From sequence record KC801932: a DNA stretch of 64,000 nt. One strand, given 5' to 3'. This document shows positions 3,466 through 61,237 of the stretch, piece after piece. This DNA is from Escherichia phage Lw1. How positions within the stretch are numbered: the first letter of the stretch is position 1; every line of letters starts with the position of its first letter. The notes below the pieces were generated by a model. It searched no databases and was not told the origin of the DNA. It saw only the letters and a list, made by a program, of their open reading frames with translations. The position numbers were made by a program, and so were the translations under genes.

Positions 3466-4125
3466 TTAAAAGTTAAATACATTCAGCACGTCAGTTTTCA
3501 ATTCACCAAGCGTACCATTATTTAGGATGATAATATCGTTTGGTTGGGGTTTCAATCCTTTCTCAGTTGAATGGCTATCGTCTTCCCCAGTTTCGCGTTC
3601 GATGAATACAAATTTAGTCCCGAACTTGCTCAGGTATTTATATTCATGTTTTTGTCGAACGTCTGTAATGATAAAGTGATCTTTATCGGATTTCAAGATT
3701 TTCTTCAATACAATGTCAGTCCATACAGAATCGTTCTCATTGCAAACGATGTCAGTACCGAAAACCTGCATCAAACGGCGTATTGTCCAGGGATGTTTGT
3801 TTGTTTGGCAAATTTCATACGCGATGATATCAGCATTATTAAGCCAGTACCCGCGTTTAGTCAACGATTCAATGCCATTAGCAAACAGCATACGCGCACC
3901 TTCGTTAGACATCAACAGGGGTGCTTCCCGATCCCCTGAATAGAATGGGTTTGTTTTAGAGAGTTCTCGCAGATAGCGATCCCCTGATGCAGACATTCCA
4001 TTTCTCAGGATACTCTTTATTTCATCAGCAAGCGCGATTGCTTCAACGTTCTGATAGTTATCCAAAACGAATTGAGAAACGGTGTCTTTACCTGTTCTCT
4101 TTTTTCCGCAAATACCATAAATCAT
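3466..4125 (-). CDS. 1: deoxynucleoside monophosphate kinase (gp1)
   Basis: P-loop GKKRTGKDT, RRLMQVFGTD and DVRQKHE motifs shared with T4 gp1; synteny. Confidence 0.85.
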   Translation of the reverse strand: MIYGICGKKRTGKDTVSQFVLDNYQNVEAIALADEIKSILRNGMSASGDRYLRELSKTNPFYSGDREAPLLMSNEGARMLFANGIESLTKRGYWLNNADIIAYEICQTNKHPWTIRRLMQVFGTDIVCNENDSVWTDIVLKKILKSDKDHFIITDVRQKHEYKYLSKFGTKFVFIERETGEDDSHSTEKGLKPQPNDIIILNNGTLGELKTDVLNVFNF

Positions 4126-4661
4126 GATTCTTTTTTCCGTGGAGTCGGCACGAGTACCTTTCCGTCTATCTCAATTTCCATATGTGCGAAGTTGAACATA
4201 GCCATACAGGAAACGGCTTCATCCGAGTCATTAGTGTACATAAGCTCAAGCTCTCCCAGGTTGGAGGGCCAAGCACCATAAAAGCGAAATGTCGCCACAG
4301 TTTTTGATTGCGAGTTATCCAGGATGTGTAAAGCCATTGCCTGTTGTGGTTCACTCCATCGAATTGAATCGAAGGTGTTAAAATCACAGGTTCCAAGCAT
4401 CCACAGGTAAACACCCAGATACGAACGCAATTCTTCATCAACAGCAAAACGGATAGTCAACGGATCGAACTCCATTGCAGATCCAGGGATTTTCCCACGG
4501 ATCATAGGGTTCAATGGTACGTCCGTAATTGGAATGTTGACAGAAGGTAGTGTAACACCCTGAATTTGTAGTTTCAACCCTTTCATATAATCATTATCAG
4601 GAATATCTAACATAAAGTTAGTTGGTGAAATCTGGTTCAGGATCATAGCAGTAGTGTTCAT
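4122..4661 (-). CDS. 3: tail completion / sheath stabilizer protein gp3-like
   Basis: 179 aa, position between gene 1 and gene 2 as in T4; GGAGA SD before ATG 4661. Confidence 0.6.
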   Translation of the reverse strand: MNTTAMILNQISPTNFMLDIPDNDYMKGLKLQIQGVTLPSVNIPITDVPLNPMIRGKIPGSAMEFDPLTIRFAVDEELRSYLGVYLWMLGTCDFNTFDSIRWSEPQQAMALHILDNSQSKTVATFRFYGAWPSNLGELELMYTNDSDEAVSCMAMFNFAHMEIEIDGKVLVPTPRKKES

Positions 4662-4698
4662 TAATGATCTCCATTTTGTAGATATTTATGTAGACCGT

Positions 4699-4860
4699 GA
4701 GCGAAGCGAACACACGAACGAAGTGAGTGTTTTTAACTCAACTACATAATTATATATTTATATTTTATATATAGAGAAAAATGTAGTTTTTGGTATGGTT
4801 TTTAACCAACTGTAAACTATCCGTCTTCGCTTCGCTTGACGGAACTCGCTTCGCTCGTGA
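4699..4860. repeat. ~140-bp dispersed repeat, copy 1 (AT-rich core with internal hairpin aactacat/atgtagtt, flanked by GC-rich inverted repeats gagcgaagcga / tcgcttcgctc)
   Basis: Near-identical to 39685..39849 (core aactacataattatat...agagaaaatgtagtttttggtatggtttttaaccaactgtaaactatccgtcttcgcttcgct) with a few indels. Confidence 0.85.
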
Positions 4861-4885
4861 TCTTGAAAAACTATTTGACCCTTTC

Positions 4886-4893
4886 AATAAATA
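4886..4893 (+). promoter_or_regulatory. late-promoter-like box AATAAATA (7/8 to T4 TATAAATA) followed by 8-bp palindrome ataggtat/atacctat
   Basis: Located ~40 nt upstream of internal-protein ATG 4932. Confidence 0.3.
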
Positions 4894-4931
4894 GGTATAT
4901 CATACCTATACTTTCAAAAGAGATTGAAAAC

Positions 4932-5717
4932 ATGAAATCATTCAAAGAACTACTGTCTGAATCTGTTCAGACCAAAAAATTTGCTAAAACTGTTGATCTG
5001 GTTGACCGTGGTAATGCTTCAAAAGGTCAGATCGGTTTCCTGCACTTTGCACACGGTGCTGATTACGATGTGTATGCGCCGGACTCTCACGATCTCGCCT
5101 ACTTCGGTAAAGGTGTTGTTCGCCTGAAAGGTAAAACCACTGGTAAAACTCAGGCTGCATATGTTGACTGGGCGAAAGGTACGGTTTCTTTCTATAGCGG
5201 CGATCCGGCAGATGACCTGAAATTCGACAAGCCAGCGAAATTCAAAGGCGCTTCCCTGTACAAAGAAGCCGAAGAAAATCTGGATCTGTATAATCAGTTA
5301 GCGGAAGACTTCGAAATTGATGTACCGATGGATGAAGCACTGGTGAAAGGTAAGGTGTACAAGCTCCCAAGCAACGATATGCGCTTGCTGTATACCGGAC
5401 GTACCAAAAACAAGCCTACAGGTGAATACGCTGTGTTTACGGTTGTAGATGCCTCCGGTAAGCCTCGTCTGGTATCGGGTAAACGATTTACCCAGGAATA
5501 CAAAGGCGATATGCTGTCTAAACTGGTTCTCGCTGAATCGGAAGATCTGAACGAGGCCGCTAAAGGCATTCGCGAAAAAGTTATTGCGGTGTTGGTGAAG
5601 CGCGGGTTTAACGAAAAAGATGCAGAAAAGATGGTTGATAAAAACCTAAAAGATGCGATGAAAGTTCGCCCTGGTGCAACTCCAGGAAAACTAGCGGAAA
5701 TCGTGAGCACCTTGTAA
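4932..5717 (+). CDS. internal head protein with capsid targeting sequence (IPIII-like, lysine-rich)
   Basis: N-terminus MKSFKELLSE matches T4 CTS consensus MKTYQEFIAE (gp21 protease-cleaved leader); basic K-rich body; start at ATG 4932 rather than ORF-track 4836. Confidence 0.65.
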   Translation: MKSFKELLSESVQTKKFAKTVDLVDRGNASKGQIGFLHFAHGADYDVYAPDSHDLAYFGKGVVRLKGKTTGKTQAAYVDWAKGTVSFYSGDPADDLKFDKPAKFKGASLYKEAEENLDLYNQLAEDFEIDVPMDEALVKGKVYKLPSNDMRLLYTGRTKNKPTGEYAVFTVVDASGKPRLVSGKRFTQEYKGDMLSKLVLAESEDLNEAAKGIREKVIAVLVKRGFNEKDAEKMVDKNLKDAMKVRPGATPGKLAEIVSTL

Positions 5718-5721
5718 AAAT

Positions 5722-5753
5722 AAAGCCCCTTCCTTTCGGTTGGGGCTTTTTTT
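5722..5753. terminator. rho-independent terminator between convergent genes
   Basis: aaagccccttcctttcggttggggcttt + T-run; identical 28-nt sequence recurs at 40986..41013. Confidence 0.7.
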
Positions 5754-6606
5754 AATATCGGTTCCAAACTTTTTTCGCGCTGTATGGTTTTCCTTTCGAC
5801 TGGAAAGCCTGTGTAGGCAACCAAACTGCTTTCGCCCAGTCTTTTGGGGCTATCTCTGCAAGAGGTGATCGCAGGTGCGCAGGTAAGTATGCTTTGATCA
5901 TTTGATCTGCACCGCGCATCCCTTTCACGTTGTTCCAGTTGATTTTCAATCTGGTTTTGTTTGAAAGGCGATCTGTTGAACCATAACCACGTTTCAACAG
6001 TTCTTCTAAAAACTCTTGACGGGCTTTAGGTGGCGCATAGTGCAAGTTCAAACCGTACAGAACAACGTTACCCGCTTTAGAACGTCCTGAACCCAGGAAG
6101 ATGATTAGCGGGAACCGATCCCAGTATGGTAAGGTGTCTTTATATTTCGCGTCATACACGAACGTATACAGGCGACCTGTTGCTGGTTTCGCTACCCTGT
6201 GCGTTTTGATGCTGGTTTTGATGAAGTCACCAAACCAATCGGTTGAATCCTTTTGACGTTTCGCAGCAGAAACACCAACTGTAATTTTCCGTAAACTATT
6301 TCGGAAGTCGTTGATGATGTCAACTGTATGTTTTTTGCGATAGTCATTGCGTTTTCGTCGGGCTTCGGTTTCTGCTGTACGTCGCGAGATTTCATCATCA
6401 ATCTGCTGTTTATAGCGGTGCATAGACTTTGTGAACGTTGCGTATGCAATCCCGTTTTCGTCCGCGAATTTTTTGGCTGTCATGCCTTTTAATTTTGCGC
6501 GTCTGAATTTAACACCCAGTTCAACCCATTCACCAAGTTTTCGCTTCGGTGGCGGTTTCGGCTTATCTTCTTCTGCGATGATCTCAAACTCAAATATAAA
6601 ACTCAT
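5752..6606 (-). CDS. 2: DNA end protector protein gp2-like
   Basis: 284 aa basic protein in T4 gp2 position (between gp3 and gp4); GGAGGG SD. Confidence 0.6.
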   Translation of the reverse strand: MSFIFEFEIIAEEDKPKPPPKRKLGEWVELGVKFRRAKLKGMTAKKFADENGIAYATFTKSMHRYKQQIDDEISRRTAETEARRKRNDYRKKHTVDIINDFRNSLRKITVGVSAAKRQKDSTDWFGDFIKTSIKTHRVAKPATGRLYTFVYDAKYKDTLPYWDRFPLIIFLGSGRSKAGNVVLYGLNLHYAPPKARQEFLEELLKRGYGSTDRLSNKTRLKINWNNVKGMRGADQMIKAYLPAHLRSPLAEIAPKDWAKAVWLPTQAFQSKGKPYSAKKVWNRY

Positions 6607-34505: not shown

Positions 34506-34750
34506 TGAAAGAATTTATCGAAGCAATCAAAAGCGGCGATCTGGTGGAGGCTAAGAAGCAATTCTACTCCATCATGGAAGACCGTACCGAAGCCCTTCGC
34601 CAAGAAATGCGCGTTGAAATTGCAGAAGCAGTCCGAATCGAAGGTGAAACCGACGAAGACGACAGCGACGATGATAAAGACGACAAAGACGGCGAAAAAG
34701 GCGAAAAAGACAAAAAGCCGTCTGAAAAAGACGACAAAGCCGACGAATAA
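34502..34750 (+). CDS. 67: prohead core protein gp67
   Basis: 82 aa with acidic D/E/K-rich tail; synteny. Confidence 0.8.
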   Translation: MMKEFIEAIKSGDLVEAKKQFYSIMEDRTEALRQEMRVEIAEAVRIEGETDEDDSDDDKDDKDGEKGEKDKKPSEKDDKADE

Positions 34751-34762
34751 GAGGTGTAAATA

Positions 34763-38336: not shown

Positions 38337-39635
38337 ATGAGTGAAAAACATTACACAATTCACAAGTTGATGCGTCAGTCTACGCTTCCCCCTGGTAAAC
38401 GCGAAAAGGTTATCAACGAAGCAACTGGAACGACCGACATCAACGTACAGAACACGCGCCCAGAACTGGTTTCTTTGACTCGCGCTGTTAACAACCTGAT
38501 CTATCATGAACTGGTTGCTGTACAAGAAACAAATTTACCCGTAGCAACTCTGTTTGGTGTTCGCTATCGTAACCCTAACGGCGACATGACTTTCTCCAGC
38601 GCTGCAACCTATTCAGGCCGCATATCTGGACGTACAGACATCGACGATATCGATCTGGCTAAGGCATACGTCAAAGGCGATTTATTCAAGCACGATGTCA
38701 CTGACGTTGTGTATGAGGTCATCGAACCTGTAACGCTAAACGCGCTGGATACTGATAAAGACACCGCAATCATGAAAGCTGTGTTCCAAAGTAAAATTCG
38801 TTTGGTTAGCGAAGCCGCAGACACTTCAAAATATGAAACCAGTGAAGATATCGCATCAACCTCTTTCCAGATGGATCGCTGGAACATTCCGGTTCGTTCA
38901 CGTAAGTTTAAAACTGAAATGACCGTGGAATTGATGCAGGATCTGGAAGCAAACCAGTTTGAAGCCGATGGGGTAATTGAAGATATCCTGGGTACGGTTG
39001 CAAGCGAAGAAGTCAACAAAGATATTATTCAGACGCTGATCACCGTTTCCAAACGATATAACGTTGATGGTGTAGTTGTCGATGGTATTTTTGACGGTAC
39101 AACCGCATACACTGCGAAGGATGCTCCAGCATTGGGCCGCATACTCTATCAATTAGCGTGTGAAATGGGTCAAGAAATGAATAGAACGACTTCATTTGAT
39201 GCAACCTACGTCCTCGCTAGTGCTCGCGTTGTAGGCGTTCTGGCTGCGTCTGGTTGGATGACCGAAACCGACGAACAACACCCGCTGGCAACTGGTAAAC
39301 TTCAAAACGGTTATTATGTCTATACCGACACGAATACACCGTTTGATTATCTGCTTACCGGATGCAAATACGATCTGGGTGATATGGATCACGTAGGTTC
39401 TCTGTTCTTCACTCCGTACACCGAAGCGGATGAAGCAGGTTCAATCAAGGTATCCGTAGATCCTGCATCACTGCAACCGAAAGTTGCTATTCTGATGCGT
39501 TACGGTTTATCTGTGAACCCATACACAACGGAATCCGACTCTGAACGGTTGACCAAAGGCGATGACTGGTCGAATCTGGCTGGTAAATCCAAACTCAGTC
39601 AAATCGTAGGTATTAAATTACCTAAGCTGGGTTAA
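38337..39635 (+). CDS. 24: capsid vertex protein gp24
   Basis: 432 aa; motifs LVSLTRA, SRKFKTEMTVELMQDLEAN, TLITVSKRY, LQP..A.L.RYGLS.NPYT shared with T4 gp24. Confidence 0.95.
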   Translation: MSEKHYTIHKLMRQSTLPPGKREKVINEATGTTDINVQNTRPELVSLTRAVNNLIYHELVAVQETNLPVATLFGVRYRNPNGDMTFSSAATYSGRISGRTDIDDIDLAKAYVKGDLFKHDVTDVVYEVIEPVTLNALDTDKDTAIMKAVFQSKIRLVSEAADTSKYETSEDIASTSFQMDRWNIPVRSRKFKTEMTVELMQDLEANQFEADGVIEDILGTVASEEVNKDIIQTLITVSKRYNVDGVVVDGIFDGTTAYTAKDAPALGRILYQLACEMGQEMNRTTSFDATYVLASARVVGVLAASGWMTETDEQHPLATGKLQNGYYVYTDTNTPFDYLLTGCKYDLGDMDHVGSLFFTPYTEADEAGSIKVSVDPASLQPKVAILMRYGLSVNPYTTESDSERLTKGDDWSNLAGKSKLSQIVGIKLPKLG

Positions 39636-39684
39636 TCAAGTTTTGAGAAGACCATTATAATAACAAAGATCAAGAAGGTCAAAC

Positions 39685-39849
39685 GAGCGAAGCGAGTTTT
39701 CACGAACGAAGTGAGTGATGGGTACTACTAACTACATAATTATATTTTTATATTTTATATATAGAGAAAATGTAGTTTTTGGTATGGTTTTTAACCAACT
39801 GTAAACTATCCGTCTTCGCTTCGCTCATTCATGTACTCACTTCGTTCGT
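39685..39849. repeat. ~140-bp dispersed repeat, copy 2 (same core and GC-rich inverted flanks as 4699..4860)
   Basis: Direct comparison with copy 1; flanking inverted repeats acgaacgaagtgagt / actcacttcgttcgt. Confidence 0.85.
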
Positions 39850-39853
39850 AGAT

Positions 39854-39881
39854 TTGACTTCTTGATCATGATGGTTATAAT
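39854..39881 (+). promoter_or_regulatory. sigma70-type promoter for uvsY (TTGACT - 16 nt - TATAAT)
   Basis: Consensus-like -35 and exact -10 ~25 nt upstream of uvsY ATG. Confidence 0.5.
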
Positions 39882-39904
39882 ACTACTTTGTTTTGAGGTG
39901 ATTC

Positions 39905-40327
39905 ATGGCTGAACTAAAACTTGAAGATTTACAGGCTGAACTCGAAAAGGATATGTTGATCGACCCTCTGAAACTACAGAGTGAATCAGCAGACATTCCT
40001 AAGATTTGGTCTAAGTGGCTTCGATATCATTCGAATGCTAAGAAAAAACTGATCCAGCTACAGGCCAGGAAAGAAGCAGAAGTGAAAGAACGGCTTCTGT
40101 ACTATACTGGAAGACACGAAACCGAAATGACTGATGTCATTTACACGGGTTCAGGTGAAATCAAGATCGCGATCAACGGTGATCCGAAAATTGTTGAGGT
40201 TAACAAACTGATTCAGTATTTCGAACTGATTGCGGAATTCACCAGTAAAGCCCTGGACATTGTTAAGAACAAAGGATATTCTATCAAAAATATGTTGGAA
40301 ATCCGAAAACTTGAAAGTGGTGCATAA
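39905..40327 (+). CDS. uvsY: recombination mediator UvsY
   Basis: 140 aa; LEDLQ.EL.KD..ID..KLQ...A...K..SKWL..HS pattern like T4 UvsY. Confidence 0.85.
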   Translation: MAELKLEDLQAELEKDMLIDPLKLQSESADIPKIWSKWLRYHSNAKKKLIQLQARKEAEVKERLLYYTGRHETEMTDVIYTGSGEIKIAINGDPKIVEVNKLIQYFELIAEFTSKALDIVKNKGYSIKNMLEIRKLESGA

Positions 40328-40328
40328 A

Positions 40329-40511
40329 ATGGCAGAATTACAAGAAGACTGTAAATGTGTGGTTTGCAAAAGACCGATGGTGACTGCTACTGGTTTTGTT
40401 ACTGAATCTGGTCCCGTGTGTGGCCCTATCTGTGCGCAGTATTTGATTGATCGCAACAAATCCGGTCTGAATGAAGCTGACGATCTGAACGAAGTTCAGA
40501 TGTTGCTATAG
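40329..40511 (+). CDS. small Cys-rich protein (60 aa; CKCVVCKRP...CGPIC)
   Basis: ATG immediately after uvsY stop; C-terminal part of ORF-track 40230..40511. Confidence 0.5.
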   Translation: MAELQEDCKCVVCKRPMVTATGFVTESGPVCGPICAQYLIDRNKSGLNEADDLNEVQMLL

Positions 40512-40519
40512 GTGGAAAT

Positions 40520-40657
40520 ATGAACGACTATTCGAAAATCGACTTTAACGAAGTATTTCGTTTGCTGGGATTGATGGAAGAATGTGTGAACCATGTTCAT
40601 TCACTTCGAATTAAATTTGAAAGTGGTTGCAATGAAGATGAACATCCATATTTTTAG
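40520..40657 (+). CDS. small protein candidate (45 aa)
   Basis: AGGTGG SD before ATG 40520; below ORF-track cutoff. Confidence 0.35.
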   Translation: MNDYSKIDFNEVFRLLGLMEECVNHVHSLRIKFESGCNEDEHPYF

Positions 40658-40659
40658 GG

Positions 40660-40980
40660 TAGGTAAAAAGTTGCCATAGGCAAGACAAATCAAACTATAG
40701 GACAAACTTACGGATAGCCTAACGCCGAGGTGAGAACGTTAACTTTTGTCCGAGGCGGGTTTGAGTTCGAAACGCAAGGATCGGACGCTCTAAATACTGG
40801 TGTACCCCTTGTGGGGCTTGGGCTTGCCGTGTGGCGTACCCTTTTGCGCCGTCCGATAGAGTTTACTTTCGGCGGGGTGATTGGTAAGATACCTTCGAGT
40901 AAAGGCCAGTTAATTGTAATTCAGAATAGTACAGCACTGAAATAAAATAAATGTATGTGTCGGAACAAACGGTTTCCGAA
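40660..40980. other. GC-rich non-coding region with multiple short inverted repeats; candidate structured RNA
   Basis: No convincing ORF (71-aa ORF 40730..40945 has atypical composition); local GC-rich segments such as ccccttgtggggcttgggcttgccgtgtggcgtaccc unlike surrounding AT-rich phage DNA. Confidence 0.3.
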
Positions 40981-40985
40981 ATTAA

Positions 40986-41017
40986 AAAGCCCCTTCCTTT
41001 CGGTTGGGGCTTTCTTT
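40986..41017. terminator. rho-independent terminator between convergent genes (same sequence as 5722..5749)
   Basis: aaagccccttcctttcggttggggcttt + T-rich tract. Confidence 0.7.
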
Positions 41018-41248
41018 TTAAAACTTCTCTTCTTCTCCGGTTTCGAGTTCGGCTTTCAGTTCTTCTCGCCGTCCCTTGATCGCGTCACGCATTGAAATAT
41101 CATCGGATGCTGCGACCTCGACTTCTTTCACGCGTGTGTTGTAATACTTTTCAAGTTCTTTCAAACCGTCCAGTGTCCGGCACGAAGCAACCTTATTCAT
41201 GAAATCATCAATCGCGGCTTCGTTTACAAATTTGGTAAAACTTTTCAT
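41018..41248 (-). CDS. uvsW.1: UvsW.1 small helicase-associated protein
   Basis: 76 aa directly downstream of uvsW on the same strand. Confidence 0.75.
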   Translation of the reverse strand: MKSFTKFVNEAAIDDFMNKVASCRTLDGLKELEKYYNTRVKEVEVAASDDISMRDAIKGRREELKAELETGEEEKF

Positions 41249-41257
41249 TGTAACCTC

Positions 41258-42757
41258 TTAAATGTCTACTTGTTTGATCACGTAGTCGAATCGTTCTTCG
41301 TTGTAGATCCGCACACGTTCGATCGCATGTTTCATGCCGTAGTTCGTCGCACTGTATTTATTTTTAGCTGTTTTTGACTTCGACAGCGTAGCCAGGTTAT
41401 CGACGATATCCCATACAGTTGCAAGCAGTTTCGAACCATGCTTACGAAGAACACGTCCGATTGACTGTTTCACAACAACAGCGGATTTGCAAGGATGTGC
41501 AAAAATGATGTGATGCAGGTTCTTGATTGAAATACCTGTACTCAGTACCCCGATCGAACCGATGACGATTAAACCTTTCGTCGATTCTGCAATCTTCTTC
41601 ATTTCGTTACGATCGTCAATCCCTGTATCACCGTTAATCAGTACAACGTTATCGTAAACCTTGCTCAACTGCTCGTATAGCCATTTTCCGTGTTCTTTGT
41701 ACCGGAACATCACGAATGTGTTTTCGTTCTTCTCACGGGACAGTTTAAGGGCTAATTTAAGAATCCATGAGTTGCGCCTTGTATGGCTCGTAACGTATTT
41801 GATTTCGGTCTGGTAGTCCGCACCTTTTAACTTCTTAACCTCTTCTTCTTTGTATCGAAGAAAGATTGTGTTAATTTTCAGGTTGGTGACTTGTCCATCA
41901 TCCATCAGACGACGCGTATCAACTGGTTTAAAGACTTTACCGAACGCACCGATGTATTGCATCATGTTTGTTTTCCCTTCTTTCAGGGAACCGGATAAGC
42001 CCAGTTTGAAGATACATTGATCCATCGTGTCGATAATCTTTTTGATGCTCATACCTGTTGAGAGGTGGCATTCATCAACCATCAAGCACATGAACTGTTG
42101 GAACCATTCGGCAGGCATTTTAACCGCTGATTGCCAGGTTGAAACGTAAATCAACGCGTTACTGTTTTTTGCTGTGCCGGAACGGATACCAAGCATTGCC
42201 GATTTCGGGAACAGTCGATAGTTTGCGATGTCTTCGATCATTTGGTCAACAAGTGCGGTAGTCGGAACGATAATCAACACCTTTCCGCTGTAATGTTCCA
42301 GACACCAACGAGAGATAAGCCCCTGAATCAGAGATTTACCTGCTGATGTTGGCAGGTTCAGGACACCGCGACGGTTTTTGATACCGTGGAATACCGATTC
42401 TCTTTGATACCAGTACGGATCTATTTGTTTGTCACCGTCATAAACTGGATGGTCTTGAATCCACTTGTCAAAACTTTCCTGCGTGATATCCTCAGTTTCA
42501 TGGATTTTTGGATCAACCCAGATTGAATACCCGCGAGACTCTGCAAATTTTGATACCAGATAGGCTAACCCATACGGAAGTTTACCGTTGTAGTCCATCA
42601 GGTAGATATACCCGTTCCATCCACCATATTTGTATTTGGCTTGATACTGATAGCCTGGGGGCTGGAATGAAAAATAGTCACGCAGTTCATAGACTATGTT
42701 AGCGTCTGCCTGAATCTGTACGTGGCTTGTGTTTAAATATTTGACTTCAATATCCAC
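41258..42757 (-). CDS. uvsW: UvsW RNA-DNA and DNA-DNA helicase
   Basis: 499 aa; LNLPTSAGKS (Walker A), MVDECH (DExH box), IGRVLRKHGSK, ATVWD motifs as in T4 UvsW. Confidence 0.95.
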   Translation of the reverse strand: MDIEVKYLNTSHVQIQADANIVYELRDYFSFQPPGYQYQAKYKYGGWNGYIYLMDYNGKLPYGLAYLVSKFAESRGYSIWVDPKIHETEDITQESFDKWIQDHPVYDGDKQIDPYWYQRESVFHGIKNRRGVLNLPTSAGKSLIQGLISRWCLEHYSGKVLIIVPTTALVDQMIEDIANYRLFPKSAMLGIRSGTAKNSNALIYVSTWQSAVKMPAEWFQQFMCLMVDECHLSTGMSIKKIIDTMDQCIFKLGLSGSLKEGKTNMMQYIGAFGKVFKPVDTRRLMDDGQVTNLKINTIFLRYKEEEVKKLKGADYQTEIKYVTSHTRRNSWILKLALKLSREKNENTFVMFRYKEHGKWLYEQLSKVYDNVVLINGDTGIDDRNEMKKIAESTKGLIVIGSIGVLSTGISIKNLHHIIFAHPCKSAVVVKQSIGRVLRKHGSKLLATVWDIVDNLATLSKSKTAKNKYSATNYGMKHAIERVRIYNEERFDYVIKQVDI

Positions 42758-61000: not shown

Positions 61001-61237
61001 ATGAAAATCAAAAATACTGCTACTGAAAATCTTTGCAACGAAATCGCGGTGACTTACTGGAAAGAAGGTCACGCAAAAGCAATGAAGGATTTTCAACACT
61101 GGAAAGAAGGTCACGCAAAAGCAATGAAGGATTTTCAACCGTGGTGTGATACCCAGAAGTTAGCCAAATGGGAATACATCGTAATCGTGGAACGGATCAA
61201 AGAACTGATCCTTGAGAAGAAAGGCACTATAAAATGA
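61001..61237 (+). CDS. hypothetical protein (78 aa) containing in-frame 14-aa duplication
   Basis: ORF track; WKEGHAKAMKDFQ repeated. Confidence 0.45.
   Translation: MKIKNTATENLCNEIAVTYWKEGHAKAMKDFQHWKEGHAKAMKDFQPWCDTQKLAKWEYIVIVERIKELILEKKGTIK
61057..61140 (+). repeat. perfect-to-near-perfect tandem duplication, 2 x 42 bp
   Basis: ctggaaagaaggtcacgcaaaagcaatgaaggattttcaac repeated head-to-tail, one mismatch at unit end. Confidence 0.9.

Follow-up and report, generated by a model that had tools for sequence, protein, structure and literature searches.

The window analysed here is a 64,000-nucleotide stretch of Escherichia phage Lw1 (record KC801932) containing two loci at which one or more genes are preceded by a copy of an approximately 165-bp repeat and followed by the same 28-nt hairpin (Table 1). 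Locus A, between gene 3 and gene 2, encodes a 261-aa protein, and locus B, between gene 24 and the uvsW genes, carries the uvsY operon. The two repeat copies (4697-4858 aligned with 39681-39850) are the only ones in the window. Over a center of about 100 bp they differ by one substitution and one indel, and their arms diverge more. The 28-mer AAAGCCCCTTCCTTTCGGTTGGGGCTTT was found only at the two loci, with no other window site at three or fewer mismatches, and its chance expectation in the window was zero (100 shuffles). The sharing of both borders, reported in a preliminary description of this DNA, was therefore borne out.

That description had also given locus B a sigma70-like promoter, uvsY and two small open reading frames, and all of these were found: the promoter is near consensus, uvsY matches PF11056, and the small frames are a DUF2685 gene and a 45-aa frame of phrog_12503. 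The GC-rich non-coding stretch placed after them is present as 328 bp of non-coding sequence, but its GC content is 45%, compared with 43.7% for the window. The promoter-like box of locus A is also present, but it overlaps the conserved sequence AATAAATA and is probably a late promoter, whereas locus B has an early one. The protein encoded at locus A had been called an internal protein; it has an N-terminus, MKSFKELLSE, which we take to resemble the T4 capsid-targeting sequence, and this is the one feature pointing to such a role, but its family, phrog_7322, is of unknown function. The internal anatomy of the repeat, a leftward promoter at locus B, and third copies beyond the window did not form part of the preliminary description.

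Table 1. Features of loci A and B (window positions; a point marks features given for neither strand)
Feature	Position	Strand	Basis or remark
Gene 3 (head-proximal tail tube tip), left neighbor of copy A	4122-4661	-	RB16 annotation mapped, 99.6% identity
Copy A left arm, two GA/GNA hairpins	4697-4730	+	4697-4711 gtGAGCGAAGCGAac; 4712-4730 acacGAACGAAGTGAgtgt; hairpin scans, covariation
Copy A AT-rich core, 19% GC	4731-4820	.	Two inverted repeats
Copy A inner inverted repeat	AACTACAT 4740-4747 / ATGTAGTT 4781-4788		Around 6%-GC loop
TATAAATA in copy A core, probable late promoter of gene 3	4755-4762	-	
Copy A second small inverted repeat	GGTT 4797-4800 / AACC 4804-4807		
Copy A right arm, two GA hairpins	4821-4842, 4844-4858	-	Hairpin scans
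Promoter region of locus A gene	4875-4903	+	Sigma70-like TTGACC-17-TATCAT overlapping conserved late-type AATAAATA (4886-4893)
Cargo A, 261-aa phrog_7322 protein	4932-5717	+	CTS-like N-terminus
Predicted bidirectional intrinsic terminator	5722-5749	.	Convergent junction of cargo A and gene 2; invariant 22-nt core 5725-5746
Gene 2 (DNA end protector), convergent with cargo A	5752-6606	-	Mapped from RB16
Gene 24 (capsid vertex), left neighbor of copy B	38337-39635	+	
Orphan leftward sigma70 promoter, TTGACC-17-TATAAT	39654-39682	-	Antisense into gene 24, no ORF downstream
Copy B left arm, two GA hairpins	39681-39699, 39700-39718	+	Hairpin scans
Copy B AT-rich core, 24% GC	39719-39813	.	Inner inverted repeat 39730-39737 / 39770-39777
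Copy B right arm, GA hairpins	39814-39828 (degenerate), 39834-39850	-	Hairpin scans
Early sigma70 promoter of uvsY, TTGACT-16-TATAAT	39854-39881	+	
uvsY (PF11056)	39905-40327	+	
DUF2685/uvsY.-2	40329-40511	+	
45-aa ORF, phrog_12503	40520-40657	+	
Mosaic non-coding module	40658-40787	+	In window, RB16, JC221; missing from Margaery, GuL6
Candidate structured small RNA	40789-40941	+	Late-promoter-like TCTAAATA at 40789-40796
Hairpins of small RNA candidate	40805-40816, 40821-40907 (long), 40920-40941	+	
Predicted bidirectional terminator, second copy	40986-41013	.	Convergent junction with uvsW.1
uvsW.1 (PF11637)	41018-41248	-	Convergent with cargo B
uvsW helicase	41258-42757	-	Convergent with cargo B

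Each repeat copy is a mirror-symmetric element made up of two top-strand hairpins, an AT-rich core, and two bottom-strand hairpins. Every arm hairpin is composed of a variable Watson-Crick stem, tandem G·A/A·G pairs, two further pairs, and a C-GNA-G triloop, with the conserved 11-mer GA-RC-GNA-GY-GA. Some relatives have perfect stems (TTCGC-GAA-GCGAA, ATGACC-GAA-GGTCAT, AACGC-GAA-GCGTT), and most have the tandem G·A interruption. The hairpins were on the plus strand at the left and on the minus strand at the right in 24 of 24 elements from nine genomes. A strict hairpin scan of the RB16 genome (176.8 kb) returned nine hairpins, all within its three elements, compared with about 0.15 in shuffles.

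Nearest-neighbor DNA folding found the arms to be no more stable than shuffles (z about +0.7), so the structure is argued from covariation. Among 59 hairpin instances picked by the 11-nt core alone, 76% of the cells were paired, compared with 57% in shuffles, and the covariation score was 0.561 versus 0.233, a level reached in none of 500 shuffles, with slid controls at or below 0.167. Compensatory stem changes were found between orthologous hairpins (AAAC/GTTT to AAAT/ATTT, AACGC/GCGTT to AGCGC/GCGCT, and an inner G-C to A-T). This indicates that the arm hairpins are under selection. They appear to act as DNA rather than RNA, because the flanking promoters point away and leave the arms outside their transcripts, and because non-Watson-Crick cells were G·T about as often as A·C (22 and 19), with no G·U excess, unlike the nearby G·U-rich RNA candidate.

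At every copy the element lies between outward-facing promoters, and none of those detected is directed into the core. Copy B and the copy between rnh and gene 55 (c1) have divergent near-consensus sigma70 promoters to either side in all of the genomes, and copy A has probable late promoters. These promoters are 5-40 bp from the arms; at copy B the arms abut the -35 hexamers, and the element ends 4 bp before that of uvsY. The orphan leftward promoter was kept in every B copy examined except that of RB43, for which the extract was short on that side.

Copy c1 is a third copy, located outside the window at the head of a long operon that is without the 28-nt terminator. The three elements are at about 31.9, 100.8 and 135.8 kb of the genome. 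RB16 has three copies as well, at rnh|55, gp3|orf and gp24|uvsY (31.2, 100.9 and 137.9 kb), and these same three loci were occupied in all nine genomes examined in full. Two or three copies each were detectable in 62 phage records, and an IMG/VR contig (2595698971), identical to the window at 100% over the 2.4 kb compared, carries all three. All three copies are in conserved blocks, none in hyperplastic regions. These comparisons indicate that the repeat is a cis-element of about 165 bp whose three loci are fixed across about 60 Pseudotevenvirus-like genomes. Copy A no longer has its AT core in Margaery-type phages, and the sister genus Slopekvirus is missing the element despite having the same replication genes and gene order. 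The T4 region upstream of uvsY had no GA hairpins, only a MotA-box promoter, and the arm sequence had no match in 5,426 E. coli genomes. Rfam searches returned nothing past terminator-like noise, either for the whole window at the gathering threshold or for 39600-41100 at E ≤ 10. Full-text literature searches with the motif sequences and for RB43/RB16 intergenic hairpins returned only primers and unrelated matches, and a genome review of the T4 relatives was silent; the element is undescribed in the literature.

The arms are locus-specific and orthologously conserved, but the cores are genome-specific, with three core types across the genomes in which the two inner inverted repeats covary. This combination points to concerted evolution, in which the likeness of the cores within a genome is kept by gene conversion. 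In the window, the 3' part of the copy B core (about 39795-39825) has A-type sequence, which in RB16, RB43, GuL6 and CfP1 is found at copy A only. The window thus shows a recent A-to-B gene conversion for which 39795-39825 marks the tract. Whatever its function, the element is a clean natural case of concerted evolution in a phage genome, its non-coding copies being separated by 37-105 kb.

The 28-nt hairpin has a predicted G+C-rich stem with an A-tract upstream and a T-tract downstream (AAAAAGCCCC...GGGGCTTTTTTT). It is present at three sites in this genome, all of them convergent gene junctions, the third being after gene 25 where there is no repeat. Its 22-nt core, including two mismatches and the loop, was invariant at 856 places in 568 phage records from several families, with carriers among Straboviridae of several genera, phiEco32-like phages, and Pseudomonas and Aeromonas phages. 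In JC221 the terminator is inverted at one locus. The distribution indicates that the hairpin is a widely used, generic, predicted bidirectional terminator, and loci A and B end at two of its several copies. It is like other bidirectional intrinsic terminators in its A- and T-tracts, in its restriction to convergent junctions, and in being annotated on both strands in the Margaery record, and it differs in the invariance of its core across phage families.

The reading of the element that we favor, tentatively and at somewhat less than an even chance, is that the three copies are bidirectional replication origins or helicase entry sites with predicted DNA-unwinding cores. The structure would act at the DNA level. 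Negative supercoiling behind two divergent RNA polymerases would melt the AT core and would also extrude unusually stable purine-strand hairpins at the arms, leaving the pyrimidine strand single-stranded on each side in an orientation that would let a 5'-to-3' helicase (gp59/gp41) load and move outward, and the outward transcripts could prime leading strands. The arm 11-mer is composed of the motifs of the d(GCGAAGC) mini-hairpin or GNA triloop and of sheared tandem G·A in the context 5'-Y-GA-R-3' (Hirao, Chou, Reid and co-workers). Such hairpins, triloops and sheared pairs are unusually stable in published work, and the stability claimed for the arms is based on that behavior, which the folding tool misses; they are motifs of physical chemistry rather than a biological system.

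The T4 record locates oriF at the uvsY 5' end and gives the uvsY transcript as its primer, and copy B, at the uvsY promoter, has the equivalent position. By analogy, T4 oriF, or ori(uvsY), would have its functional counterpart in copy B. T4 oriF and oriG each combine a promoter with an AT-rich unwinding element, an early promoter serves oriE, and active T4 origins are located at points of transcriptional divergence (PMC3016281). The element resembles oriF and oriG in having an unwinding-type AT-rich core (19-24% GC, with a 6%-GC loop) adjoining a strong promoter, in occurring several times per genome at points of transcriptional divergence, and in the uvsY site. However, a MotA middle promoter fires into the downstream unwinding element in the T4 origins, which have no hairpin arms (PMC3016281), whereas here sigma70 or late promoters fire outward from a conserved mirror-symmetric structure, and no detected promoter would send a transcript through the core. 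Other points counted against origins were the want of a common motif in T4, the genomes of Slopekvirus without the element and of Margaery-type phages without the copy A core, the position of the B hairpins against the -35 hexamers, as would be expected of a site for a transcriptional regulator, and the sense-strand hairpin pairs upstream of distant gp55 and uvsY genes, which look more like gene regulation or an RNA element. The leftward promoter at locus B, which has no gene to express, was counted in favor. A placement of T4 oriC near gene 55 was dropped, as the T4 review puts oriC near rI.-1 (PMC3016281).

T4 is the textbook multi-origin phage, yet no motif is common to its origins and they have no known initiator protein; the use of R-loops at origins beyond oriF and oriG, and what governs the choice of origin, are listed as open in the same review (PMC3016281). 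A three-copy, genus-wide, structurally defined element with one copy at the site equivalent to oriF would make these questions testable in a close relative.

A purely transcriptional role, though rather unlikely when judged by itself, is nearly as likely as the origin role. The arms and core would then be a supercoil sink or insulator, or a platform for a regulator, setting the strength or the timing of the outward promoters (those of gene 55, uvsY, rnh, and the gene 3/internal-protein pair) with no part in replication. The constant position between outward promoters, with the B arms touching the -35 hexamers, fits such a role, and the arrangement of four similar sites, paired in mirror image on the two sides of a bendable AT core, is reminiscent of looping operators. 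Neither MotA nor AsiA is annotated in RB16, whose middle genes would therefore need another kind of control, and genome-specific cores would fit co-evolution with a trans factor. The same hairpin pair was also found on the sense strand just upstream of gp55 and uvsY homologs in two very distant T4-like contigs, L029 and L045 (25 nt from the ATG in one of them), and upstream of gp55 in L217. However, the pair is not general in distant T4-like phages: it was found at one of 67 uvsY loci, being missing from the other 66, and at a single gene 55 locus out of about 70, which makes L029 and L045 sporadic cases. In addition, the outer stems, variable yet complementary, favor a folded strand over a duplex binding site, the orphan promoter at locus B expresses no gene, and Slopekvirus manages without the element.

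The arm hairpins also recall the virion-RNA-polymerase promoters of phage N4, which have a short stem of 5-7 bp and a purine GNA triloop closed by C-G; the hairpin of the N4 P1 promoter, GTTGC-GAA-GCAAC, is extruded by supercoiling (PMC13434306). C-GNA-G triloops and short stems were present in all of the hairpins, and in 24 of 24 elements the purine hairpin was on what would be the template strand for outward transcription, a likeness of orientation only. Unlike N4 promoters, the hairpins of the element contain tandem G·A pairs, are arranged as mirrored pairs about an AT core, and have no conserved 5' flank like CCATAAG. Identity with N4-type promoters was rejected, since no virion or single-subunit RNA polymerase was found among the 272 RB16 features or by Pfam scans of six large unannotated ORFs. 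The 19-mer acacGAACGAAGTGAgtgt recurs without change in N4-like metagenomic contigs encoding RNAPII, on the strand opposite to the early genes, where the hairpin is a probable virion-RNA-polymerase promoter. A more specific form of the origin reading would have three bidirectional origins marked by supercoil-extruded GNA-triloop hairpins, serving as strand signals that hold the AT core open and direct outward loading of helicase or primer. This form is doubtful. If true, it would give T4-type phages their first repeated origin motif defined by sequence, and the N4-type DNA hairpin a second biological use, one independent of the polymerase. The recurrence of the tandem-G·A/GNA hairpin in unrelated phages suggests that phages can reuse a small and very stable DNA hairpin as a signal.

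It is improbable that the hairpins work at the RNA level, as terminators, 3'-end protectors or processing sites in read-in transcripts such as the gene 24 late mRNA, where they would insulate neighboring transcription units. The left arm of copy B does stand where a terminator is annotated after gene 24 in Slopekvirus, the second hairpin of copy A is followed by TTTTT, and several unrelated contigs have the hairpins on the sense strand between co-directional genes. However, the arms of c1 and copy A would be read only in antisense transcripts, copies B and c1 have no U-tract, and in one phage family the hairpin is antisense to both of its neighbors; the base-pair counts and Rfam results given above also argue against RNA.

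The preliminary description had interpreted the shared borders as homologous flanks of a cassette framework whose cargos are exchanged by recombination. This is, in concept, a promoter early stem-loop (PeSL) model. PeSLs are repeated intergenic promoter and stem-loop motifs that recombine with one another, and they have been shown to mediate shuffling in RB49/phi1 and other T4-like phages (Arbiol 2010, PMC2839356; Comeau 2014, PMC4122927). The borders proved to be conserved in relatives, and the repeats do recombine ectopically, homogenizing the cores within a genome, but no exchange of cargo accompanied this. Cargo A was orthologous in all relatives examined (74-94% amino acid identity) and cargo B was unchanged in all genomes examined, including the sister genus; cargo identity was examined in about ten genomes, and DNA-level matches to the loci were found in roughly 200 phage records. 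Variation by indels was confined to the C-terminal 59 aa of cargo A, there or missing according to genome, and the 3' non-coding part of cargo B, which is mosaic between genomes. Nor do the borders form a pair, as the repeat occurs without the terminator at rnh|55 and the terminator without the repeat after gene 25. The hairpin, moreover, is generic and ancient, a commonness that the preliminary description itself regarded as making the pairing coincidental. The loci are in conserved late-gene blocks and their promoter classes differ. PeSLs are short, have a single simple G/C stem-loop terminator beside a promoter, and occur in tens of copies in hyperplastic regions next to variable ORFs, whereas the element is present as three 165-bp composites, each combining an AT core with four special hairpins, at fixed conserved sites and with constant cargo. 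Near-consensus sigma70 promoters adjoin the arms of c1 and copy B, but these arms are paired GA/GNA hairpins that have no U-tracts, and copy A uses probable late promoters. The names RB43 and RB16 are absent from the text of the 2014 PeSL paper (PMC4122927). The comparative data largely refute the cassette model, which we regard as very unlikely, and indicate that loci A and B are two of three fixed sites of the element plus a common terminator, rather than a cassette that was duplicated or can be exchanged. For annotation purposes, cassette mobility should not be read from identical short terminators or from promoter-proximal repeats by themselves.

A selfish or neutral palindromic repeat of the MITE or REPIN type, or a functionless recombination hot spot, would account for the inverted arms at the ends, the small size, the several copies and their concerted evolution, but was rejected as highly improbable, because the loci are fixed, with no insertion polymorphism seen in the genomes examined in full and no target-site duplications or direct repeats at the ends, and the orthologous arms, covariation constraint and lack of E. 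coli matches also stand against it.

Apart from the element, the non-coding part of cargo B contains a candidate structured small RNA, rich in G·U pairs, in a region conserved into Slopekvirus. A 71-aa ORF in this region (40730-40945) was rejected as coding, as it had no family match and the region showed RNA-type covariation instead; a tRNA/tmRNA scan found none. The candidate has 33 pairs, of which 9 are compensatory, and pairing of 98.5%, a result matched by none of 500 shuffles.

The window belongs to a T4-type myovirus, a Pseudotevenvirus of the RB16/RB43 group, and is 99.6% identical to RB16 at locus A and 94% at locus B. An IMG/VR contig, UViG_2595698971_000001 (176,227 bp), was 100% identical to the window across the 2.4-kb stretch compared, and the window is segment 96,001-160,000 in its coordinates. 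Several points of the preliminary description were confirmed. The 28-nt hairpin occurs at exactly two places in the window, where none is expected by chance, the repeats upstream of loci A and B can be aligned over about 165 bp with a nearly identical central 100 bp or so, and the gene content of both loci was as described. Locus A runs from gene 3 (minus strand) through the repeat, a promoter region, a 261-aa ORF and the terminator to the convergent gene 2. Locus B consists of gene 24, the repeat, a near-consensus sigma70 promoter, uvsY, a DUF2685 ORF, a 45-aa ORF, 328 bp of non-coding sequence, the terminator, and the convergent uvsW.1 and uvsW.

There are three copies of the repeat, which evolve in concert, and each is an AT-rich element flanked by hairpins in mirror symmetry. 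Two 15-21-nt units of one kind make up each arm; the top strand carries them on the left, the bottom strand on the right. Folding of the unit (consensus stem-GA-RC-GNA-GY-GA-stem) gives an outer Watson-Crick stem, 2-5 bp long here and as long as 9 bp in other phages, then tandem G·A and A·G pairs, a single R-Y and a single C-G pair, and a GNA triloop. The RB16 whole genome was pieced together from four database segments for repeat and hairpin scans, and a strict scan found nine such hairpins, all nine inside the three elements (shuffles, about 0.15). The orientation rule (+ left, - right) had zero exceptions in 24 elements from nine genomes. An unbiased covariation test used 59 distinct instances picked by their 11-nt core alone, with the 17-mer of the database search left out: 76% of the stem cells were paired versus 57% in shuffles, and the covariation score was 0.561 versus 0.233 when shuffled, a value reached by none of 500 shuffles, with slid controls at or below 0.167. 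Compensatory changes were present between orthologous hairpins, and wobble was not preferred among the non-Watson-Crick cells (22 G·T, 19 A·C). The standard DNA energy model did not single out the arms; the idea that they are unusually stable draws on published work on the d(GCGAAGC) hairpin, on GNA triloops and on sheared tandem G·A pairs.

The core between the arms is 90-95 bp long with 19-24% GC, and contains an 8-bp inverted repeat around a 32-nt loop of 6% GC, followed by a second small inverted repeat. There are three core types, and covariation preserves both inverted repeats: AACTACAT/ATGTAGTT in RB16, RB43, GuL6, CfP1 and the window, ATGTACTG/CAGTACAT in Margaery and one metagenomic genome, and ATGTCYAT/GTGGACAT in JC221. 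The core type is uniform across all copies of any one genome, while the arms, unlike the cores, are locus-specific and orthologous between genomes, a pattern of concerted evolution, or of co-evolution with a trans factor. In the window, the 3' core and start of the right arm of copy B (the element at gene 24/uvsY) carry sequence that is confined to copy A (the element at gene 3) in RB16, RB43, GuL6 and CfP1, and form a recent gene-conversion tract between sites 35 kb apart. In Margaery-type phages copy A has lost its AT core and kept its arms.

Coordinates of features in the window and in other viral contigs and loci (L-numbers)
Feature	Location	Remark
28-nt hairpin	window 5722-5749, 40986-41013
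22-nt terminator core	window 5725-5746, 40989-41010; L073 9877-9898
Locus A protein gene	window 4932-5717	phrog_7322
Gene-conversion tract in copy B	window ~39795-39825
Leftward promoter at B	window 39682..39654	TTGACC-17-TATAAT
Non-coding stretch of locus B	window 40658-40985	downstream of uvsY operon
Second non-coding module	window 40658-40787	several hairpins
Candidate small RNA	window 40789-40941	long hairpin 40821-40907; second hairpin 40920-40941
uvsW.1	window 41248 downward	start MKSFTKFVNE
Short-period repeat	window 34640-34751	imperfect
42-bp tandem duplication	window 61056-61139	perfect
N4-like gut-metagenome hairpins	L030 11367-13962; also L008, L011, L023, L024, L046, L050
Hairpins around repeat-rich centre	L060 754-936	two top-strand and at least one bottom-strand GA hairpin; centre 110 bp
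GA hairpins	L034 941-1205	five in 260 bp
GA hairpins	L037 13229-13697	mixed with other triloop hairpins
GA hairpin pair	L029 4741-4778	56 nt upstream of gp55 homologue
GA hairpin pair	L045 1102-1143	25 nt upstream of UvsY homologue
Klebsiella phage KP15 (Slopekvirus)	L191 1130-1500; L109 1180-1500	intergenic equivalents of c1, the element copy at rnh/gene 55, and of B

The preliminary description had also taken identical borders around different contents as the signature of modular exchange. Comparison across relatives upheld the conservation of the borders but not the variation of the cargo, and exchange of different cargo was not borne out, as relatives have the same genes at A and at B. Margaery, GuL6 and JC221 carry one and the same gene at locus A (74-94% protein identity), which differs only in whether a 59-aa C-terminal module is there. 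The uvsY operon is constant throughout the genus and also in Slopekvirus, and the variable part of locus B is its 3' non-coding portion, a mosaic of modules. Promoter class differs between the loci, with an early sigma70 promoter at B and a conserved late-type motif, AATAAATA, at the locus A gene (a perfect TATAAATA in JC221). For gene 3, a minus-strand TATAAATA lies within or adjoining every A copy except Margaery's, where the AT core is lost. What the comparison shows is conserved regulatory punctuation at the borders and a fixed cargo between them. The C-terminal 59 aa of the locus A protein constitute a module of their own, phrog_9411, which Margaery and GuL6 lack and which is almost identical in the window and JC221. 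The protein begins MKSFKELLSE, which we take to resemble the capsid-targeting sequence of T4 internal proteins, and uvsW.1 begins similarly.

Nor did the repeat and terminator hold as a pair. The third of the three repeats in the RB16 genome lies between rnh and gene 55, and the long operon that it heads (55, a-gt.5, a-gt.4, 47, 46 onward) has no terminator of the 28-nt type; a third terminator in the window's own genome, 3' of gene 25 at another convergent junction, has no repeat near it. The search for further copies (31-nt query) matched 856 places in 568 phage records, including several Straboviridae genera, phiEco32-like podoviruses, and Pseudomonas and Aeromonas phages; because the terminator is so widespread, at many loci and in several families, the pairing is refuted. 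The hairpin appears to be a generic bidirectional terminator. Its 22-nt core, GCCCCTTCCTTTCGGTTGGGGC, does not vary at loci A and B in any relative checked, nor at the uvsY/uvsW.1 junction in Slopekvirus, the sister genus; Yersinia phage JC221 has the locus A copy in inverted orientation. Two U·U (A·A) mismatches and the loop (UUUC/GAAA) are also invariant across unrelated phage families in the 568 records. Conservation of the core exceeds what a generic terminator should need.

An exact IMG/VR search for CACGAACGAAGTGAGTG found 58 loci, about 10 of which have only a 3-bp stem inside an ORF and look like chance; the remaining matches are intergenic with longer stems. One gut-metagenome contig family encodes a two-subunit N4-like RNA polymerase II (phrog_2051, 2e-109; phrog_2166, 3e-59) and has three to four tandem-G·A/GNA-loop hairpins on the strand opposite to the RNAPII/early genes, each preceded by CCATAnATAAA. 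The N4 P1 promoter, CCATAAG-GTTGC-GAA-GCAAC, is a hairpin that supercoiling extrudes and that serves the virion RNA polymerase (PMC13434306), and because of this likeness the contig hairpins are very probably hairpin promoters, and probably a variant class of those used by virion RNA polymerases. One of them is a 19-mer identical to that in copy A. The element shares its hairpin with the N4 promoters but not the polymerase: no N4-type RNA polymerase was found in this T4-like phage, which is therefore not a member of that system. The N4 precedent does show that a hairpin of this kind can work as extruded DNA.

The layout of two hairpins, a repeat-rich centre and two inverted hairpins recurs in L060, a 71-kb contig, where an extra bottom-strand GTA-loop hairpin was read by eye. 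Two very distant T4-like contigs have a GA hairpin pair directly upstream of a gene, which encodes a gp55 homologue in one (29% aa identity to RB16) and a UvsY homologue in the other (25% identity); in this phage, too, the element is followed by gene 55 and by uvsY. Only one further case was found among the distant loci surveyed (67 uvsY, about 70 gene 55), most of which had no such hairpins. In Slopekvirus, whose gene order is the same, the equivalent sites are instead occupied by AT-rich, GATC-dense regions with multiple promoters, which suggests Dam/SeqA-type control or origin-like character. About 11 GATC were counted by eye in some 370 bp upstream of gene 55 in Slopekvirus.

At c1 and B, outward-pointing near-consensus sigma70 promoters were found on the flanks in every genome; copy A has probable late promoters on its two sides, for gene 3 and for the locus A gene. 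The leftward promoter at B, antisense into late gene 24 and with no ORF after it, is conserved as far as JC221. Transcription from these promoters runs away from the element and leaves the arms out of the transcripts, which, together with the lack of wobble preference, argues for a structure at the DNA level. Divergent transcription would produce negative supercoiling between the outward promoters, under which the AT core should melt and the hairpins of the purine strand should extrude. On each side this would leave the complementary strand single-stranded, with the polarity for outward 5' to 3' helicase movement, and the outward transcripts would have the polarity of leading-strand primers. 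This would fit a bidirectional origin or helicase-entry site, which we put forward as the likeliest reading, though with less than even confidence. The T4 record puts oriF at the uvsY promoter and gives the uvsY transcript as its primer, and T4 origins, which lie where transcription diverges, pair a promoter with an AT-rich unwinding element (PMC3016281). The element is like oriF and oriG in composition and position, but unlike them in promoter orientation. Against an origin, the promoters fire away from the core, T4 origins have no known motif or initiator (PMC3016281), Slopekvirus lacks the element, and the sporadic association of hairpins with uvsY and gene 55 elsewhere looks regulatory. 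A purely transcriptional role, with which that association would agree, is nearly as likely as an origin. RNA-level insulation, cassette exchange and a selfish repeat are each improbable. The nearest described concept is the PeSL (PMC2839356, PMC4122927), from which the element departs in two of three criteria, being not abundant in hyperplastic regions and having cargo that is not variable; no description of the element was found in the literature searched.

The non-coding stretch of locus B includes a candidate structured small RNA; JC221 and over 100 Slopekvirus genomes have it at about 82% conservation, and RB16 and GuL6 lack it. Its 33 pairs are 98.5% paired, nine with compensatory changes (0 of 500 shuffles). 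A late-promoter-like TCTAAATA (TATAAATA in phage P52_1) lies 5' of it and the bidirectional terminator 3'. The window, RB16, JC221 and Cronobacter phage Invicta have the second non-coding module and Margaery and GuL6 do not, so the 3' end of the uvsY locus is mosaic. Elsewhere in the window, the short-period repeat has many GAC, GAA and AAG codons, indicating an acidic/lysine-rich low-complexity coding stretch, and the 42-bp tandem duplication has an in-frame length of 14 codons.
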